From Escherichia coli (GTDB taxonomy: Bacteria > Pseudomonadota > Gammaproteobacteria > Enterobacterales > Enterobacteriaceae): DNA of 64,000 nt. Of the stretch, positions 1 to 12,950 are shown piece after piece. The stretch lies in assembly GCF_044324785.1 (NCBI RefSeq), contig NZ_CP172127.1, one strand, 5' to 3'. Made by a program: the position numbers and the translations under genes. Below the pieces are notes generated by a model. It saw only the letters and a list, made by a program, of their open reading frames with translations. It searched no databases and was not told where the DNA came from. The first letter of the stretch is position 1; each line of letters opens with the position of its first letter.

Positions 1-1038
1 TGCCCATTTTTGAATTCTATTGTATCGAGAGGGCAATGTGAATTTTTTAACTTGTTTGTAACATTCCTTTTGGAATTCTTGCTGATATTTTATTATGTCG
101 TTGTATGAAAGATTGTTTACCCTGGTCTCTAATAATTCTATTATTGTCGAAGCAATTTCCGCTTTTGCTCTTAAAGAGTTGTCATTAATGGTTAATAATG
201 TTGAAAATAAACCATTGATTTGTTTGTCAAGATATTGTTCATCTTTATGTAATTTTGTGATAGGGTATTCCTTATGTGAAAAAATAGTATCAAATAAATT
301 TGCATCAGTGAAGTTTACATTAAGTAGATCTTCGAAATAAAACCTTGACAAGGTTAGAACGAACCCGGACAGATCCTGTCCTGTCATATTGAAATCAATA
401 AAGTTGGTTCCAGCAAAGACTTTCATCTTGTTTTCATTTTCACTGTTCTCAATATACAACCTTATCATTTTTTGGTACAAGCTTTGAATATCTTTTATAT
501 CAGTTGGTAAATCAGTTCGTTGCCCAGAAAAATTTTTATTTTCGGAAGAAACGGTTTGGACACTGAATCTTACTGGTATTCCCTCTTCTACGAGAATTTT
601 AGTTATGATTGGCTTATTGGGCTTAGGATTAAAGACAACAATGATTTTAGATTCAGAGTTTTTATTCTTTTCGTATCTAATGTTATTAATCTGATTAAGT
701 ATTGATTGTGTCTGTTGCGTAAGTGGTGTCGAACTTATCGTTTCAATGTTATTAATAAGACTTACAAGTTGAGCCACAACTTTTGAGTAGTCTGCATTTG
801 TATATGTGGTGTTCGTGTGGCACGCATTAATTTGTTGGAATTGTTGTTGCGCTAAATCAAATTGTTCAGCGTTATATCCTTCTTCAGACAATGAAAAATT
901 AATGGGTTGCTGTTCTTCCTGATTATCACAAGGCCACATCGGTGTGTCTGGTGTTTTAACATTGTCGGTATCTGTTGTGCGGTTATAAATATCGCCGTGA
1001 TATGTATTTATCATACCTGGGGTAAAGTCAATTGACAT
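1..1038 (-). CDS. Partial CDS (N-terminal ~346 codons; 3' end lies beyond the window start) for an AT-rich protein with pentapeptide-like repeats; possibly the yhiS-position gene
   Basis: Reverse-strand frame is open from ATG at 1038 to position 1 with no stop; AGGA-type RBS precedes the ATG; absent from the ORF track because no stop lies in the window; translation contains [19 protein letters not shown]...[10 protein letters not shown] repeats. Confidence 0.55.
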
Positions 1039-1618
1039 AACATTCCTTATTGTTCATCTATTTCGCTAAATTTTTGTAAATCGGAGAATTAGAGCAGGAA
1101 TGGATTTTCTTCTACGCGGAAATAAACACAATGCGTCATATCTTCCTGATATAATTACCTTTAACTTCCCTTTCATTTCCACCCGGTAATATTTGTGTAT
1201 AAAAAAAGGGCAGTGATAGTATCGTAAAGGAAAACGTTAACAACTATCAAAAAGCGCTCATTTTAAAAAGTTATGATGTTCACCGATAGTGTGTGAAGTG
1301 ATATTTTTGTGATGTTTTAGATGTGTAATAATGAACCAGGTTAAAGTGTATTTAAAAATGTGTTGTATTGGCGACTGAAATCTGCCCTTTAAAAGGGGGG
1401 ATAGCACTGAGACAAAGAGACATTGCTTCTCCGATAAAATGTCAGAGAAGCATGATTGCGTGGTGATTGTCGATTGATGACTTACTGACGGATCCGTCAT
1501 CATTCTCAAAGCATTAGTTCAATCATTTGTGATTTTTAAGGATTATCCTGTCTATGATTTTCTACTTAGAAGGATATGGCACTAACTATGCATCTTATAG
1601 TTTACTGTCGGCATCTAT

Positions 1619-2620
1619 TTAAAATAGCATTTGAGTCAAATAGCCCATCAAGATAGCCATACCTAAGATAACCGTCAGGAATGCAACTATCATCGGTATT
1701 CTGAACATTGATTTAAGTAATATCACTTCCGTCAAACTTGCTCCGGCACTGCCGATGATTAATGCCATTAATGCTCCCAGACCCATTCCTTTTGTCATCA
1801 AAACAGATGCCAGAGGGATAATCGCCTCTGCCCGGATATACAGCGGAATTCCGACAACGGCGCTCAATGGGATGGCGAAGGGATTATCTGCCCCTGCATG
1901 AGCGGCAATCCACTCTGAGGGAATAAAGCCATAAATAAAAGAGCCTATTAATACCCCTAACAAAAGATATGGCAGTACATCTTTAAACTGTTGCAACGCA
2001 TCTTTGGTGGCTAGTTTTATGGGATTAATACTTACCACAGCTTTGGTACTGCAACAGTTTACTACAGGTTTCTCAATGGCTTTAGCCGCTGGACTACAGC
2101 AACTCGCTTTTATCGGCGTATATGTCGTCCCCGGCGAAGTTTTGGCTGGAGCACAACAATTTGCTGATGAGCTTTTACTGGCAATGATATGACGTTCAAA
2201 TCCCAGAGAATCCAGGATAATACTGGCAAGTACGGAGACGCCGGCGGCGATAATCGCGTACAACAAGGTAACTTTCCAGCCAAAGGTCACCCACATTAAC
2301 CCGACGATAATGGGATTAAGTAATGGTGAAACAAATAAAAAAGTGAGAGTCGGACCAAACCCGGCTTTCGCTGATAACAATCCACGTAACATGGGGATTG
2401 TCGAGCAACTACAGAACGGGGTAACGGCTCCCAATAGAGCAGCCAGGAGATAGCCTCTCCCTTTTCTGGCCCCCATCATCTGCTGGATTTTATGGTCTGG
2501 CACCTTTTGTCTTATCAGGCTGACACCGGCACTTATCACTATAAACAGCAAAGAAAGCTCGACGGCGAGAAACACAAACATCTCTGCGGCATCTTGCAGC
2601 ATCGCAAGCCAACTACTCAT
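1619..2620 (-). CDS. arsP: ArsP-like (DUF318/YraQ-type) permease, putative organoarsenical efflux permease
   Basis: Multi-pass hydrophobic protein with an exact TPFCSCSxxP motif (TPFCSCSTIP) and a Cys-rich central loop; start chosen at ATG 2620 (GAGG RBS at correct spacing) rather than the ORF-track start at 2632. Confidence 0.6.
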   Translation of the reverse strand: MSSWLAMLQDAAEMFVFLAVELSLLFIVISAGVSLIRQKVPDHKIQQMMGARKGRGYLLAALLGAVTPFCSCSTIPMLRGLLSAKAGFGPTLTFLFVSPLLNPIIVGLMWVTFGWKVTLLYAIIAAGVSVLASIILDSLGFERHIIASKSSSANCCAPAKTSPGTTYTPIKASCCSPAAKAIEKPVVNCCSTKAVVSINPIKLATKDALQQFKDVLPYLLLGVLIGSFIYGFIPSEWIAAHAGADNPFAIPLSAVVGIPLYIRAEAIIPLASVLMTKGMGLGALMALIIGSAGASLTEVILLKSMFRIPMIVAFLTVILGMAILMGYLTQMLF

Positions 2621-2726
2621 ACGTAACCTCATTGAATAAATCTATATTTCCAGAATAATCGAAATGAAATTCAGATCAAGATATTTCTGGTATTATCGAA
2701 ATATCAACCAGACAAAGGGGTGTCAT

Positions 2727-3023
2727 ATGCAGTTGGAAGAAGTTGCTAAAGCGCTGAAAGAGCTAGGTCACCCGACCCGTTTGTTCATATTCAAACACCT
2801 GGTCAAAGCGGGGGAACAAGGTTTGCCGGTCGGTGAGTTGCAAAAGCAGCTTGGGATACCCGGCTCTACACTCAGTCACCATATTTCAGCACTGGTATCG
2901 GTAGGGCTGGTCAAACAAAACCGTGAGAGTCGAACGCTGATGTGTGTTTCGCAATACGCAATGCTGGAAGCGATAATTGAATTCTTACGCGAGGAGTGCT
3001 GCGTAAATAGCAAAATTGCCTGA
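2727..3023 (+). CDS. ArsR/SmtB-family transcriptional regulator, second copy, divergent from the ArsP-like gene
   Basis: HTH region HPTRLFIFKHL...GELQKQLGIPGSTLSHHISALVSVGLV; cysteines are C-terminal (CVSQY, ECC) and the canonical ELCVCDL site is absent; start at internal ATG 2727 with AAAGGGG RBS. Confidence 0.7.
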   Translation: MQLEEVAKALKELGHPTRLFIFKHLVKAGEQGLPVGELQKQLGIPGSTLSHHISALVSVGLVKQNRESRTLMCVSQYAMLEAIIEFLREECCVNSKIA

Positions 3024-5427: not shown

Positions 5428-5525
5428 GGACGTAAAAAAACCGACTTTGCGTCGGTTTTTTACTTCCCAGCCCTGAGTTGGTGGCTCTGGCTGGAGTGAG
5501 AGAGCTCTTATCTAACAGCTCAATA
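5428..5525 (-). ncRNA. agrA: agrA/agrB-type antisense sRNA repeat, copy 1 (which copy is agrA and which is agrB is uncertain)
   Basis: ~95 nt unit repeated at 5663-5762; on the minus strand it ends in a hairpin CCGAC-GCAAA-GTCGG followed by a T-run; unit is near-complementary to the dinQ 5' region at 5919-5953. Confidence 0.45.
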
Positions 5526-5662: not shown

Positions 5663-5762
5663 GACGTAAAAAAACCGACTTCGCGTCGGTTTTTTACTTT
5701 CCAGCCCTGAGTTGGTGGCTCTGGTTGGAGTGAGAATGCCATCATCTAACGCATCAATGCTA
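5663..5762 (-). ncRNA. agrB: agrA/agrB-type antisense sRNA repeat, copy 2
   Basis: Second copy of the same unit with the same terminator hairpin; position matches the K-12 arsR-gor intergenic dinQ-agrAB locus. Confidence 0.45.
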
Positions 5763-6023
5763 ATACCATACTGAAACTATTGCAAGGACGTGCTGGTTTT
5801 ATAACCTGCATGTACTGTATGATTATCCAGTTAGCTCTGAGGCATTTTCACTCTGGTAATGCGCATAAACGCTTTCAAAGTCCTGGTCAGAAGTACGGGT
5901 GGTGCCGTTAACTGATGCTCTGGCCGGAGTGAGAGAGTTCTTATCTAACAATGAGACATGCGCCGTGACAGGCAGTGGATGAGTAAGCGGATGCATTCTC
6001 ACTCCATCGCATGGAGAAAACGG

Positions 6024-6107
6024 GTGATTGATAAAGCAATCATCGTTCTTGGGGCGTTAATTGCGCTGCTGGAACTGATCCGCTTTCTGCTTCAGCTTCT
6101 GAACTGA
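6024..6107 (+). CDS. dinQ: DinQ type I toxin peptide (27 aa, GTG start)
   Basis: Translation (V)IDKAIIVLGALIALLELIRFLLQLLN matches the DinQ peptide as I recall it; lies between the agr repeats and gor. Confidence 0.7.
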   Translation: MIDKAIIVLGALIALLELIRFLLQLLN

Positions 6108-6124
6108 TAGCGGAAACGTAACTA

Positions 6125-6153
6125 AGGGCAAAGAGCACACCACTCTTTGCCCT
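6125..6153 (+). terminator. Hairpin after dinQ, possible terminator
   Basis: AGGGCAAAGAG / CTCTTTGCCCT stem followed by TTAACATTT; weak U-tract. Confidence 0.35.
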
Positions 6154-6160
6154 TTAACAT

Positions 6161-7513
6161 TTAACGCATGGTCACGAACTCTTCTGCCGCCGTCGGGTGA
6201 ATGGCGACGGTATTGTCGAAGTCTTTTTTGGTTGCGCCCATCTTCAGCGCCACCGCGAAGCCCTGCAACATTTCATCCATACCAAAACCAATGCCGTGAA
6301 TTCCGACAATCTTCTCTTCCGGTCCAACGCATACCAGTTTCATGCGGCACGGCTGGCGGTGAGTGGTGACTGCGGTATACATCGCGGTGAAAGAGGATTT
6401 ATACACTTTCACCTGATCGTCGCCGTACTGCTCGCGCGCCTGCGGTTCCGTTAAACCAACAGTCCCAATCGGCGGATGGCTGAAGACCACGGTCGGAATG
6501 TTGCTGTAATCCAGATGCTCATCCGGCTTGTTATTAAACAGGCGTTCAGAGAGACGGCGACCCGCTGCAACTGCTACCGGTGTCAGTTCCACTGCCCCCG
6601 TGTTATCGCCCACCGCGTAAATACCTTCAACGTTGGTATTTTGATATTTATCGACGACGATATAGCCTTTTTCGTTAGTTTTAACGCCAGCGGCTTCCAG
6701 GTTGATGTTGTCATTGGCAGGCTCGCGACCAATCGCCCAAATCAGGCAATCTACCGTTTCACTGCGACCATCTTCCAGCTCCAGCGTCAGGCTGCCGTCG
6801 GCATTTTTCACCACCGCTTTCGGGATGGCGTTGGTGTGCAGCTGCGGGCCTTCGGCGTTCATCACTTCGACCAGCGTTTCAGAGATCATCGGGTCGAAGC
6901 TGCGCAGCGGCGCATGTTTACGCACAAACAGATGCGTTTTCGCGCCGAGGCCGTTAATCACGCCCGCCAGTTCAACGGCGATGTAACCCGCGCCAACAAC
7001 CGCTACGCGCTCTGGCAGCGCCGGCAGGGCGAAGAATCCATCAGAATCAATACCGTATTCCACGCCCGGAATATCCGGGTGGCTCGGACGACCGCCGGTG
7101 GCGATCAGAATATGATCGGCCGTGATGGTTTCGCCGTTTACCTCCAGCGTTTTGGCATCAACGAAGCGGGCAAAGCCTTTGATTACATCAACGTTATTTT
7201 TACCGAGCACGTTTTCATAGGAAGTATGAATACGGTCGATATAGGCGATACGGCTGGCGATCAACGTTTCCCAGTTGAATTTATTGATAGTGGTATCGAA
7301 ACCATAATCCGGACCGTACATGTGGATCGCTTCACGGATTTGCGCCGCGTGCCACATCACTTTTTTCGGCACGCAGCCGACGTTCACGCAGGTGCCGCCC
7401 AGTTCTTTGGCTTCAATCAGCGCGCATTTCTGACCGTACATAGCCGCGCGGTTGATGGAGGCGATACCGCCGCTGCCGCCGCCGATGGCGATGTAATCAT
7501 AGTGTTTAGTCAT
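6161..7513 (-). CDS. gor: Glutathione reductase
   Basis: 450 aa, [19 protein letters not shown]..., FAD/NAD-binding GxGxxG motifs, redox-active [10 protein letters not shown]. Confidence 0.97.
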
Positions 7514-7584
7514 GACAGAGTGTCCTTATCGTTGATTACCGCGATTGTAGCGCGAGACGTAATAGGTGCCAGCAATGGCTGCAA

Positions 7585-8427
7585 TTACTCCGGCACGATC
7601 CAGCTTACGGTGGCGTGCCCGGTGCCAGCCGGAACCAGTTTGCTGTGCAGCCACGGCAGCACGTTATTCATCTGCTGTTCCAGTTTCCACGGCGGATTAA
7701 TCACAATCATGCCGGAAGCGGTCATGCCACGGCGATCGCTGTCTGGCAGCACCGCCAGTTCAATTTGCAGAATTTTGCGAATGCCAGTCGCTTCCAGGTC
7801 GTGGATCATGCGCTTAATTTGCTGGCGCAACACCACCGGATACCACAGTGCGTAAGTGCCAGTGGCGAAACGTTTATAGCCTTCTGCTATCCCGCTGACC
7901 ACCGCCTGATAGTCGGTTTTCATTTCATACGGCGGGTCGATAAGGATTAAACCACGGCGGGAAACCGGCGGCAGTTTGGCCTTAAGCTGCTGGAAGCCAT
8001 CGGCTTTTTCGACGCGCGCACGGCTGTCTTTCTGAAATTCAGAACGCAGCAACGGGTAATCGCTCGGGTGCAGTTCGGTCAGTTGCAGGCTGTCCTGTTC
8101 ACGCAGTAGCTGACGAGCAATCAACGGTGAACCGGGGTAGTAACGCAACTGACCGCTACGGTTGAAGTGTTTTACCACATTGATGTACGCCTCCAGCTCC
8201 GCAGGCAAATCGTCCTGCTGCCAGATACGGGCGATACCTTCGAGATATTCGCCGGTACGCTCGGCATGTTCGCTGCCTAACTGATAACGCCCGGCCCCTG
8301 CGTGGGTATCGAGATAGAGAAACGGTTTATCTTTCTCTTTCAGCGACTCGATGATCAGGCTCTGAACGGTATGTTTAAGGACGTCGGCGTGGTTGCCAGC
8401 GTGAAAGCTGTGGCGATAACTGAGCAT
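7585..8427 (-). CDS. rlmJ: 23S rRNA m6A2030 methyltransferase
   Basis: 280 aa from MLSYRHSFHAGNHADVLKH; ATG at 8427 preferred over the ORF-track start at 8478. Confidence 0.9.
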   Translation of the reverse strand: MLSYRHSFHAGNHADVLKHTVQSLIIESLKEKDKPFLYLDTHAGAGRYQLGSEHAERTGEYLEGIARIWQQDDLPAELEAYINVVKHFNRSGQLRYYPGSPLIARQLLREQDSLQLTELHPSDYPLLRSEFQKDSRARVEKADGFQQLKAKLPPVSRRGLILIDPPYEMKTDYQAVVSGIAEGYKRFATGTYALWYPVVLRQQIKRMIHDLEATGIRKILQIELAVLPDSDRRGMTASGMIVINPPWKLEQQMNNVLPWLHSKLVPAGTGHATVSWIVPE

Positions 8428-8629
8428 GGGTAAAGGTGTTCCGGTAAGTAAAAATCGGCCCGTATTCGGGGCGCACAAAAGCCTATCAGGACAGTATACC
8501 GAAAAGAGGCCGCCGCCGCGAAAGCGTAACGTTTCTCATTGAAATTCACTACACTTAACCCCATGCTACAAACATTATGTAAAGCGCCTGTTGAGCGCTT
8601 CCTTAACCTCTTTAACCAGGACTGCGCTA

Positions 8630-10672
8630 ATGACGAATCCGTTACTGACTCCCTTTGAATTGCCTCCGTTTTCTAAAATTCTCCCGGAACATGTCGTTCC
8701 AGCCGTGACTAAGGCGCTGAACGACTGCCGCGAAAATGTGGAGCGCGTAGTAGCGCAAGGGGCACCGTACACCTGGGAAAATCTCTGCCAGCCGTTGGCG
8801 GAAGTGGACGATGTGCTGGGGCGTATCTTCTCCCCGGTCAGCCATCTGAACTCGGTGAAAAATAGCCCGGAACTGCGTGAAGCGTACGAACAAACCCTGC
8901 CGCTGCTGTCAGAATACAGCACCTGGGTAGGGCAACATGAAGGGCTGTATAAAGCATATCGCGACCTGCGCGATGGCGATCATTACGCCACGCTGAACAC
9001 GGCGCAGAAGAAAGCGGTTGATAACGCACTGCGCGACTTTGAACTCTCTGGCATCGGTCTGCCGAAAGAGAAACAGCAACGCTACGGCGAGATTGCCACT
9101 CGTCTTTCTGAGCTGGGCAACCAGTACAGCAACAACGTCCTCGATGCGACAATGGGCTGGACCAAACTCGTTACCGACGAAGCGGAGCTGGCGGGGATGC
9201 CAGAAAGCGCGCTGGCTGCGGCAAAAGCCCAGGCTGAAGCGAAAGAGCTGGAAGGTTATTTGCTGACGCTGGATATCCCAAGCTACTTGCCGGTAATGAC
9301 CTACTGCGACAACCAGGCTCTGCGCGAAGAGATGTATCGTGCTTACAGCACCCGCGCCTCCGATCAAGGCCCGAACGCCGGTAAGTGGGACAACAGCAAG
9401 GTGATGGAAGAGATCCTCGCGCTGCGTCACGAACTGGCGCAACTGCTGGGTTTTGAAAACTACGCCTTTAAATCCCTTGCCACTAAAATGGCAGAAAATC
9501 CGCAGCAGGTGCTTGATTTCTTAACCGATCTGGCAAAACGCGCGCGTCCGCAAGGTGAAAAAGAGCTGGCGCAACTGCGTGCCTTCGCTAAAGCCGAATT
9601 TGGCGTGGATGAGTTGCAGCCGTGGGATATCGCGTACTACAGCGAAAAACAAAAACAGCACCTCTACAGCATCAGTGACGAACAACTGCGTCCGTACTTC
9701 CCGGAAAACAAAGCGGTTAACGGCTTGTTTGAAGTGGTGAAACGTATTTACGGCATCACCGCTAAAGAGCGTAAAGATGTTGATGTCTGGCATCCGGATG
9801 TACGTTTCTTCGAGCTGTATGACGAGAACAACGAACTGCGCGGCAGCTTCTACCTCGACCTGTATGCCCGTGAAAACAAGCGCGGCGGGGCGTGGATGGA
9901 TGACTGCGTAGGCCAGATGCGTAAAGCCGACGGTTCGCTGCAAAAACCGGTCGCGTATCTGACCTGTAACTTCAACCGCCCGGTAAATGGTAAACCGGCG
10001 CTGTTCACTCACGACGAAGTGATCACCCTGTTCCACGAGTTCGGTCACGGCCTGCACCATATGCTGACCCGCATCGAAACCGCCGGTGTTTCCGGTATCA
10101 GCGGTGTGCCGTGGGATGCGGTCGAACTGCCGAGTCAGTTTATGGAAAACTGGTGCTGGGAGCCGGAGGCGCTGGCGTTTATCTCTGGTCACTACGAAAC
10201 CGGCGAACCGCTGCCGAAAGAGTTGCTGGATAAAATGCTGGCGGCGAAGAACTACCAGGCGGCGCTGTTTATTCTGCGCCAGCTGGAGTTCGGCCTGTTC
10301 GATTTCCGCCTCCATGCCGAGTTCCGCCCGGATCAGGGGGCGAAAATCCTCGAAACCCTGGCAGAAATCAAGAAACTGGTTGCCGTGGTACCGTCTCCGT
10401 CATGGGGCCGTTTCCCGCACGCTTTCAGCCATATTTTCGCCGGTGGTTATGCGGCAGGTTACTACAGCTACCTGTGGGCCGACGTGCTGGCGGCAGATGC
10501 CTTCTCGCGTTTTGAGGAAGAGGGCATTTTCAATCGTGAAACCGGACAGTCGTTCCTCGACAACATTCTGAGCCGTGGCGGTTCAGAAGAGCCGATGGAT
10601 CTGTTCAAACGCTTCCGTGGTCGTGAACCACAGCTGGATGCGATGCTGGAGCATTACGGCATTAAGGGCTGA
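8630..10672 (+). CDS. prlC: Oligopeptidase A (M3 family zinc metallopeptidase)
   Basis: 680 aa from [17 protein letters not shown]; HEFGH zinc-binding motif present. Confidence 0.95.
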
Positions 10673-10679
10673 TCATTCA

Positions 10680-11432
10680 GTGAAAATCTGCTTAATTGAT
10701 GAAACAGGCACCGGAGACGGTGCCTTATCTGTTCTGGCGGCCCGCTGGGGGCTGGAGCACGATGAAGACAACCTGATGGCGCTGGTGTTAACACCGGAGC
10801 ATCTGGAACTGCGCAAGCGTGATGAGCCAAAACTTGGTGGCATCTTTGTTGATTTTGTTGGCGGAGCGATGGCGCACCGACGCAAATTCGGCGGTGGTCG
10901 CGGTGAGGCGGTGGCAAAAGCGGTGGGCATTAAAGGCGATTATCTCCCGGACGTGGTGGACGCCACCGCAGGACTGGGGCGCGATGCCTTTGTGCTGGCT
11001 TCGGTCGGCTGCCGCGTGCGGATGCTGGAGCGTAATCCGGTGGTTGCTGCATTGCTCGACGATGGCCTGACGCGTGGTTATGCGGATGCGGAAATCGGCG
11101 GCTGGTTGCAGGAGCGGTTGCAGTTAATTCACGCTTCCAGCCTGACGGCGCTGACCGATATTACTCCGCGCCCGCAGGTGGTCTATCTCGATCCGATGTT
11201 CCCGCATAAGCAGAAAAGCGCGCTGGTGAAAAAAGAGATGCGTGTCTTTCAGTCGCTGGTGGGGCCGGATCTTGATGCCGATGGATTACTGGAGCCTGCA
11301 CGCTTGCTGGCGACCAAACGCGTGGTGGTAAAGCGCCCGGACTACGCGCCACCGCTGGCGAATGTCGCCACGCCAAACGCGGTTGTCACCAAAGGGCATC
11401 GCTTTGATATTTATGCAGGTACGCCGGTGTAA
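10680..11432 (+). CDS. rsmJ: 16S rRNA m2G1516 methyltransferase
   Basis: 250 aa from GTG at 10680 ([14 protein letters not shown]); the ORF-track start at 10575 would overlap prlC and is rejected. Confidence 0.85.
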
Positions 11433-11436
11433 AAGT

Positions 11437-11468
11437 AAAGCAGGGTAGCGTTATCGCTACCCTGCTTT
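11437..11468. terminator. Bidirectional rho-independent terminator between convergent rsmJ and dtpB
   Basis: Perfect palindrome AAAGCAGGGTAGCG-TTAT-CGCTACCCTGCTTT. Confidence 0.6.
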
Positions 11469-11480
11469 CTGCAAGAATAA

Positions 11481-12950
11481 TTAATGGCTTTCGGGCGTCG
11501 CAATCATTCGTTTCAGCCACGGCACCATCAGCAGCATCGCCACCGCAACGCCCAGCGTAACCAGGCCAATCTTACCAAACACGTTGGTATAGACGGGCAA
11601 CGTCTCAAGCGGATCGGTAATGTTGTCTGGTACTGCGGTAAATGTTGCCACATAGCCGCCCAGCAAGAACGCGGCAGCCTGCGTCAGGAACCACATCCCG
11701 AGAATAAAGCCCATCAAATGCTGCGGCACCAGGGCAGCAATCATCGCCAGACCCAGGGCGCTAATAAACAATTCACCCAGGCTCTGGAACAAGTAAACCA
11801 GCACGATAAACCACGGCGATGTCAGTCCTTGTGCATCAGCAAACCACATTCCCGCAGCGGCGGCTGTAAGAAAGCCCAGCGAGCACATAAACATGCCGAG
11901 AGTAAATTTCATCGGCATCGAGAGGTCTTTGCCTTTGTTACCCAGATGCGTGTAAATGCCTGCCAGTATTGGGCTGGCGAGTACCACCCAGAACGGGTTA
12001 AGCGCCTGGAAGCTGACCGGGTTGATGGAAAAGCCGAGAATTTCATGATGCACGTTGTTGATGGCAAAGAAGTTCAGCGACGTTGGCATCTGGGCGTAGA
12101 GAATGTAAAACACCACCGCTTCGAGCATCAGGACAAAGGCGACAAACATTTTATTGCGCCCGGTTTTATCCAGCTTGAATGCCTGACGAAAGAAAATGAT
12201 GGTGACGACGATGGAGAGAACAATCAGCACCAGATTGGCGACTTCTACGTTGTGCATCAGCCATGCACAGACGAAGATCATCACCACGCTGCCAAGTAAC
12301 ACGTACAACAGTTTGCTGAAGCTCATCGGCCGGAAGTCGGGTTCAGAACCAATGTCTTTCACCATTCCGCGACAGGCGATGTAAACCAATAGCGCGATAA
12401 TTAATCCCGCACCGCACAGGTTGTAGGTGACTGAATAGCCGAATCTATCAGCGATCACAGGGGCCAGCGATAACGCTATCAACGAGCCGATGTTGATCGA
12501 CATATAGAACAGGGTAAATGCGCCATCAAGCCGCGGATCTTTCGGCGGATAGCACTTCGAAAGCAAGCTGGCTGGGTTAGCTTTAAACAGGCCGTTACCG
12601 ACAGCGATAGTCCCCAGGGCGATGAAAATCAGGTCAGGCTTAAGTAGCGACAGGCCGGTCATGAAGTAGCCAATCGCCAGCACAAGTGCTCCGAGAACAA
12701 TGGTGCGTTTGGTCCCCAGCAGGTGGTCGCCGACATAGCCGCCAATGGAAATGAGGCCATAGACCAGCGCAGCAAAAGCACCAAAAGTGACAAAAGCCTG
12801 CTCTTGCGAGAATCCAAGCTGTTTAACGAAGAAAACCGCCAGTACGCCCTGCACGCCGTAGTAGCCGAATCGCTCCCATAACTCGACAAAAAAGATCATG
12901 AAAAATGGGCGAGGTTGCTGCAGCATCCCCATGGGTGTTGTTGTATTCAT
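11481..12950 (-). CDS. dtpB: Dipeptide/tripeptide:H+ symporter (POT family)
   Basis: 489 aa, [32 protein letters not shown]. Confidence 0.95.

Follow-up and report, generated by a model that had tools for sequence, protein, structure and literature searches.

What is the AT-rich open reading frame that runs off the first base of a 64,000-nucleotide stretch of Escherichia coli DNA (RefSeq assembly GCF_044324785.1, contig NZ_CP172127.1), and does its product belong to the pentapeptide-repeat proteins? This whole stretch is called the window below, and a reading of it made from the letters alone, here the sequence-only reading, had described the frame as a partial pentapeptide-repeat protein gene, tentatively placed at the position of yhiS in strain K-12. 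The feature is almost certainly the 5' 85% of yhiS, flanked by the ars operon and by slp on the border of the acid fitness island. It is probably a real gene whose product has a selectively constrained pentapeptide-like core, similar to that of pentapeptide-repeat proteins (PRP-like).

The identity of the gene is given by its orthologs and its neighbors. A megablast search with window positions 1-3000 returned E. coli chromosomes in which the frame is annotated as a "hypothetical protein" of 407 amino acids. The intact ortholog of strain CE10 (WP_000020630.1, 407 amino acids) matches the entire 346-residue fragment encoded in the window at 96% identity, and identity to nine alleles, reconstructed K-12 among them, ranges from 80 to 98% over all 346 codons. 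In K-12, yhiS (b3504, UniProt P37635) occupies the same position, is annotated as a pseudogene split by the insertion sequence IS5T, and begins with the same MSIDFTPG; once IS5 is removed it has 407 sense codons and is 80.1% identical to the window fragment at the amino acid level and 88.5% at the nucleotide level. The window allele is of the CE10/IAI39-like class (96-98%), a class other than that of K-12. The O157:H7 counterparts are ECs4376 in strain Sakai and Z4907 in EDL933, the latter reported just as an "unknown gene" next to the acid fitness island (PMC9729726), and one source gives the name "YhiS" to the protein cluster concerned (P0051). Whereas the K-12 gene is split by IS5 and that of O157:H7 is frameshifted (371 amino acids), no interruption is seen in the readable part of the window copy. 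The gene order in the window is yhiS, arsP-like, arsR-like, arsC, arsB, arsR, agrA/B and gor, and in the relatives slp-dctR lies on the other side of yhiS, which for this copy is beyond the window. Synteny and the CE10 ortholog thus confirm the tentative placement, and the comparison with YhiS that had been proposed along with it finds the same gene. The locus is already catalogued in every E. coli annotation, as an uncharacterised gene and not as a housekeeping one.

The frame runs on the minus strand from ATG 1038-1036 to base 1, with 346 codons and zero stops, exactly as the sequence-only reading had it. Because an in-frame TGA lies upstream at 1056-1054, this ATG is the earliest possible start, and MSI(D/Y)FTP is the N-terminus of every yhiS allele compared. 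The GC content of the fragment is 0.329, in agreement with the 33% noted earlier, and 0.306 at third codon positions, versus 0.514 for the whole window, in which GC reaches about 0.5 only past approximately 2.7 kb. The window edge cuts the gene, leaving the 3' 61 codons and the stop beyond base 1; the closest relative (L013, 98.5% nucleotide identity) and the other intact alleles have 61 further codons followed by a stop. In the relatives, the last 40 or so nucleotides of yhiS (L001 7815-7860, outside the window) are the most conserved DNA of the gene and encode KRIRLS(N/T)HYQNIIP, with 32 of 36 positions invariant even in the most divergent allele, which is 64% identical.

The pentapeptide-like core is a run of ten tandem units. 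Their central position is L, F or M in ten consecutive pentads, and the residue before it (i-1) is D or N in six of the ten. Among 20,000 composition-preserving shuffles the longest pentad run was seven, and a run of at least eight was found in none (0/20,000). The pentapeptide-like units quoted in the sequence-only reading are present and fall within this run. All ten centers are still hydrophobic in the 64%-identical allele. At the inward-facing position i-2 the residue is small in five of the ten (T, S, V, A and T), the others being K, F, Q, F and E. Database searches point to the same family, and within YhiS to this region alone: the PDB sequences retrieved by phmmer were all pentapeptide proteins (Rfr 2f3l, E 0.0027; 3n90, E 0.34), and a 16-allele profile recovered both again, together with QnrB1 at an E value of about 2 (residues 207-255). 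Moreover, HMMER over 1.84 billion representative proteins gave a sole match outside YhiS (P0151, E 4.6e-5). With 175 bits against PF00805, P0151 is itself a true pentapeptide protein, and it aligns with YhiS 178-250 only. The Smith-Waterman z score of this pair is 12.3, and hhalign aligns YhiS 177-248 to residues 109-179 of P0151 with a probability of 77% (E 2e-5), including the helix that precedes the repeats.

YhiS therefore resembles the PF00805 proteins (Cyanothece Rfr 2f3l, At2g44920 3n90, Qnr/MfpA) in having A(D/N)LXX-like tandem pentads with a strict period of five, and in the helix ahead of the pentads, as in many members of that type. It differs from the family in that there are just ten units (about 2.5 coils) in 407 amino acids, with half of the i-2 residues non-small. 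It would be a short PRP module at most, and is accordingly not filed as a PF00805 family member. An NCBIfam scan of YhiS found zero families, and Pfam matches beyond Pentapeptide were sub-threshold noise. No hydrophobic signal or transmembrane segment was detected in YhiS (maximum Kyte-Doolittle value in a 19-residue window, 0.94), and the protein is predicted to be soluble, devoid of a signal peptide or membrane segment. AlphaFold2 was run on 16 full-length alleles and on the core 175-370, and its full-length model places a helix at residues 181-198, just before the repeats, with low confidence. The helical region that follows the repeats runs beyond the window to about codon 362, ahead of a conserved C-terminal tail, and it is solely in this region that the predicted local distance difference test score (pLDDT) lies between 56 and 77. 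Finally, YhiS consists of 10.1% N and 7.5% Q, with maxima of 9 of these residues per 20 amino acids and 11 per 30, which shuffles equal in 24% and 33% of cases. The Q/N-richness thus mirrors the AT-rich composition only, and the Gln/Asn-rich low-complexity segments of the sequence-only reading amount to no more than chance.

Weak purifying selection on the frame is visible among nine intact alleles, for which the non-synonymous divergence dN is 0.082, the synonymous divergence dS 0.187 and their ratio ω 0.44. In three independent pairs ω is significantly below 1 (Fisher p 7e-4 to 4e-7). The neighboring genes give values of 0.018 (slp), 0.084 (dctR) and 0.082 (arsC). Most alleles have exactly 407 codons, despite up to 19% nucleotide divergence, and comparison of the 64% allele with its closest allele gives dS 0.62 and ω 0.32. 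Selection thus maintains the frame, and the values of ω along the gene (Table 1) put the strongest constraint in and near the repeats.

At the same time, yhiS is clearly dispensable and has been repeatedly inactivated. The K-12 gene carries the IS5 insertion at about nucleotide 745, that of O157:H7 a 1-bp deletion at nucleotide 1095 and that of strain 90-1 a 1-bp deletion at nucleotide 761, and in ST131 a 3' deletion has left only the first 390 or so nucleotides. Of 5426 complete E. coli genomes, 5415 carry the gene, whatever their pathotype; a contiguous match of at least 80% is missing in 26% of the 5,415 complete genomes, and there are intact yhiS clusters with thousands of members.

The distribution of yhiS outside these genomes is very narrow. 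All 141 word-indexed homologs are "hypothetical proteins" of E. coli or Shigella, and the 1.84e9 representative proteins contain one full-length YhiS cluster at 50% identity, plus fragments. The most divergent allele (P0120, 64% identity, 410 amino acids) has the same arsC-yhiS-slp position, and its genome belongs to a closely related Escherichia lineage, as indicated by gor and slp genes that are 95.5% and 99.1% identical to those of K-12. Two scans of 100,044 species-representative genomes, one by peptide pattern and one by DNA pattern, found no yhiS elsewhere, but were not a sensitive census: E. coli's own representative was missed by both, and its copy may be truncated as in ST131. The peptide-pattern scan confirmed nothing, and the DNA-pattern scan gave a single contig of 409 bp in an Ensifer assembly (NZ_SRXN01000179.1, L016, Ensifer sp. 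MPMI2T). This contig has 0.77x coverage, carries the 3' end of E. coli yhiS and is almost certainly E. coli contamination. Zero relatives of YhiS were found in phages by tblastn, and the only three matches among plasmids were mislabelled chromosomes, leaving none on true plasmids. The three PLSDB entries (NZ_CP134663.1, NZ_CP141089.1 and NZ_OL790696.1) measure 4.8-4.9 Mb and, although deposited in a plasmid collection, are evidently chromosomes of E. coli. A search of YhiS against the PADLOC-DB defence models gave no family at E<=0.01. From its sequence distribution, yhiS is a true orphan, confined to E. coli, Shigella and one very close Escherichia lineage. The horizontal origin that had been suggested from the low GC is consistent with that composition, but no donor appears in phages, true plasmids or other species.

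The gene is also hypervariable. In seven co-linear haplotypes (L001 6320-11494 and equivalents) the nucleotide diversity π of yhiS is 0.092, with a peak of 0.155 in its 3' half, and that of slp, 245 bp away, is 0.005. The flanking AT-rich intergenic regions have values of 0.033 and 0.054, the latter in the region upstream of yhiS. Coding yhiS is thus more diverse than its non-coding flanks, a pattern that simple decay would not predict. Slp is represented by one protein accession in all genomes examined, whereas YhiS differs by up to about 20%. Similarly, the window allele is only 80-90% identical to yhiS of most E. coli genomes, and the housekeeping block beside it reaches 95-99% identity in virtually all of them. 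The yhiS of strain 2017.09 is a mosaic, its 5' part 99.3% identical to the CE10-like class and its 3' part 97.6% to the K-12-like one, and the Hudson-Kaplan minimum number of recombination events (Rmin) among nine alleles is 16. Hypervariability and mosaicism are the only features of yhiS that we consider mildly surprising.

What is reported on the regulation of yhiS comes from incidental mentions, and no functional study of the gene was found in the literature. In K-12, the neighboring acid-resistance regulator YdeO binds near yhiS without inducing it (PMC4222967). The "promoter islands" listed in an H-NS section include both the intergenic region arsC/yhiS and the region insH11/slp (PMC3661553), and the high-affinity StpA sites named elsewhere include yhiS (bioRxiv 10.64898/2026.02.10.705075). 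Neither deletion nor cloning of K-12 yhiS gave a chlorhexidine phenotype (PMC8170033). In window positions 1-1700 promoter-like matches and terminator-like hairpins are as numerous as expected from shuffles, and no Rfam family was found within or upstream of yhiS.

Taken together, the explanation that we favor, with fair confidence, is that of a chromosomal, weakly constrained, mosaic and often-lost gene whose product would be adaptor-like and is built on a core of ten pentads. In this explanation the helix-capped mini beta-helix of about 2.5 turns would form a rigid protein-binding surface between variable flanking domains, and YhiS would serve as an interaction or adaptor protein that is dispensable and expressed only under certain conditions, having neither an enzymatic nor a DNA-mimic nor a housekeeping role. 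The binding-scaffold mechanism itself is drawn by analogy with pentapeptide modules elsewhere, and we propose it tentatively, as a possibility somewhat short of even.

Several observations weigh against this explanation. Five of the ten pentads have a large or charged residue at i-2, which is unusual inside a canonical pentapeptide helix, and the PF00805 score is 12.6 bits (E 0.1) versus a threshold of 20.2, with other alleles at 11-14 bits. The term "pentapeptide-repeat protein" used in the sequence-only reading is therefore right as to the units themselves, but too broad for a protein in which they make up just about 50 of 407 residues, with a sub-threshold score and no NCBIfam family. Structure prediction, which had been suggested as a check for a right-handed beta-helix, was run and did not build one: AlphaFold2 reached a mean pLDDT of 43.7 on the full-length alleles and 45.7 on the core, its second run, on the core, rendered the pentads as helices, and Foldseek with the first low-confidence model found no match in the PDB at E<=0.001 (template modelling scores <=0.17). 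With so shallow an alignment for an orphan gene, neither model is good enough for use. In addition, the last 61 codons of this copy of yhiS fall outside the window, and the silencing data come from K-12, where yhiS is already broken. Finally, a gene on its way to decay could also show an ω of 0.44 and frequent loss.

This last point leads to the strongest rival, according to which yhiS is an effectively functionless, silenced relic drifting to loss, and the pentads are the fossil of an ancestral pentapeptide protein. The ω of yhiS is five to twenty times that of the neighboring genes, four independent inactivating lesions occur in a handful of lineages and about a quarter of genomes (26%) are without a contiguous copy; the gene lies in a region bound by H-NS and StpA, does not respond to YdeO according to the literature, and no K-12 phenotype was found. 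However, ω is significantly below 1 and the constraint is structured, with 0.11-0.30 in the cap and pentads versus 0.5-0.8 in the N-terminal region. The length of 407 codons is kept across 10-19% DNA divergence, and is 410 in the 64% allele with its ω of 0.32, while clusters with thousands of members are intact. Moreover, a coding region cannot come to exceed the neighboring non-coding DNA in diversity through neutral decay. We consider the relic unlikely on this evidence, though it is the alternative that survives best.

The diversity data could also be read as long-term diversifying or balancing selection, with ancient allele classes recombining around a conserved mini beta-helix core. The allele classes differ by 10-19% at the nucleotide level, and by up to 36% at the amino acid level in the sister lineage. 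If such selection were acting, YhiS would be an E. coli-specific player in antagonism with host, phage or competitor, and possibly a secreted effector-like protein. This we regard as rather improbable.

Slightly less credit still can be given to the proposal that YhiS is an effector of the type III secretion system, of the EspX/PipB2/NleL type, translocated into the host where its beta-helix would bind a target, and we judge it improbable to a marked degree. Hypervariability and recurrent loss are typical of host-interaction genes, and yhiS exhibits both; its N-terminus is polar and lacks a Sec signal. YhiS and EspX1 (ECs0025), the member of the EspX/NleL/PipB2 group with which it was directly compared (PipB2 was not), are both AT-rich, Escherichia-restricted proteins with degenerate pentads among non-repeat domains, and EspX1, too, stays below the Pfam threshold (18.2 bits versus 38). 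BLASTP aligned YhiS 268-368 with EspX1 386-471 in a co-linear manner at E 0.038, the full-length proteins gave a Smith-Waterman z of 3.8 (P about 0.004), and the post-repeat domains scored 62 versus 28.9±5.0 in shuffles, a comparison picked after the alignment had been seen. The homology was not reproducible, and only the weak Smith-Waterman signal remains. In a decoy set of 676 open reading frames the YhiS profile retrieved EspX1 only in tenth place (E 9.2), the reverse search with an EspX1 profile placed YhiS behind a decoy at E 0.24-0.3, and hhalign gave the pair a probability of about 1%. YjcF and YjbI reached z 1.4-2.0 against YhiS, and controls reach 1.6. After these profile searches, the hhalign comparison and the YjcF/YjbI/control comparison, kinship with EspX1 was rejected as unsupported, and the EspX/PipB2 affinity raised by the sequence-only reading is likewise not supported. 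Moreover, the solved structure of NleL/EspX7 and SopA were missing from the PDB sequence matches, the presence of yhiS is irrespective of pathotype, and, unlike the EspX group, yhiS is inactivated in O157:H7, by the frameshift described above. No effector study naming ECs4376 or Z4907 was found, the one paper retrieved calling it an "unknown gene" as cited above, and no literature report of type III-dependent secretion was found for yhiS, ECs4376 or Z4907. As a separate observation, the orthologs of EspX1 (L017 8331-9752, O157:H7 Sakai) form clusters of about 9,000 members, including a 69%-identical E. albertii protein, which indicates that this effector-like gene is widespread in E. coli, far beyond strains positive for the locus of enterocyte effacement.

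A Qnr/MfpA/AlbG-like DNA mimic protecting gyrase or another DNA-binding enzyme, the other role that the sequence-only reading had raised, is scarcely credible: the pentapeptide signal is real and includes QnrB1 among the PDB profile matches, but at an E value of about 2, no NCBIfam Qnr model matches YhiS, three quarters of which is non-repeat, and the known MfpA/Qnr mimics are helix almost throughout, with about 8-10 coils, and form dimers with the dimensions of B-DNA, so that a DNA-mimic role appears implausible for a helix of ten pentads, whose 2.5 or so turns would be too short for it.

Table 1. Features of the yhiS region, with window coordinates and ω of the corresponding codons
Feature	Codons	Position	Strand	ω	Basis and remarks
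yhiS coding sequence	1-346 of expected 407	1..1038	-		Stop-free translation, ortholog identity, arsC-yhiS-slp synteny
Translation start region		1036..1056	-		ATG 1038-1036; Shine-Dalgarno AAGGA 1048-1044, 5-nt spacer; in-frame stop TGA 1056-1054
N-terminal region	1-177	508..1038	-		Polar N-terminus, predicted helices, short strand-rich stretch; least constrained; low-confidence AlphaFold2 model
N-terminus	1-125			0.53	
Strand-rich stretch	126-177			0.80	
Pre-repeat predicted helix, candidate N-terminal cap	178-205	424..507	-	0.11	Most constrained; hhalign to P0151
Ten tandem pentapeptide units	206-255	274..423	-	0.30	Period-5 L/F/M run, database matches, ω
Sliding windows	241-330			0.24-0.28	
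Sliding windows towards C-terminus				0.65-0.71	
Post-repeat helical region	266-346	1..243	-		AlphaFold2 all helices, pLDDT 56-77
Upstream intergenic region, 580 bp		1039..1618	.		GC 0.35; must hold the yhiS promoter

Upstream of yhiS, the window differs from K-12 by the insertion of an ArsP-type permease and an ArsR-type regulator, both absent from that strain. The permease (ArsP_1 family, Pfam E 9e-53) lies at 1619-2632 on the minus strand and the divergent regulator, with an ArsR/SmtB-type helix-turn-helix, at 2664-3023 on the plus strand, the pair being located between yhiS and arsC. It is present in CE10, JNE23-001, MS1665 and others and absent from K-12, O157:H7, H3 and ST131, and thus represents a presence/absence polymorphism extending the ars cluster. 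A terminator-like hairpin is found at 1452-1424 on the minus strand (11-bp stem with 5 GC pairs, T-rich tail), and its position about 170 nt past the permease stop codon suggests that yhiS is transcribed on its own. Further along, two Rfam AgrB matches at 5432-5515 and 5666-5749, both on the minus strand (104.5 and 99.7 bits), correspond to the agrA/agrB antisense small RNAs by dinQ, between arsR and gor as in the K-12 annotation. For the gor-rlmJ-prlC housekeeping block (window 6000-12000), the best identity among 5,426 complete E. coli genomes is 98.1%, indicating that the source lineage has no close representative among them; the window gor gene is 96.7% identical to that of K-12.

The current understanding of this region is unchanged unless a function of YhiS is found. 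Nevertheless, a protein listed everywhere as a domain-less "hypothetical" gains a statistically solid and selectively constrained pentapeptide-like core, a small but genuine refinement of its annotation that represents the first experimental handle on YhiS. The gene illustrates cleanly how a silenced gene of restricted lineage can yet be kept open in most strains, and its sharp peak of diversity and recombination beside the near-invariant slp makes it a useful typing marker and a candidate for studies of selection in E. coli.

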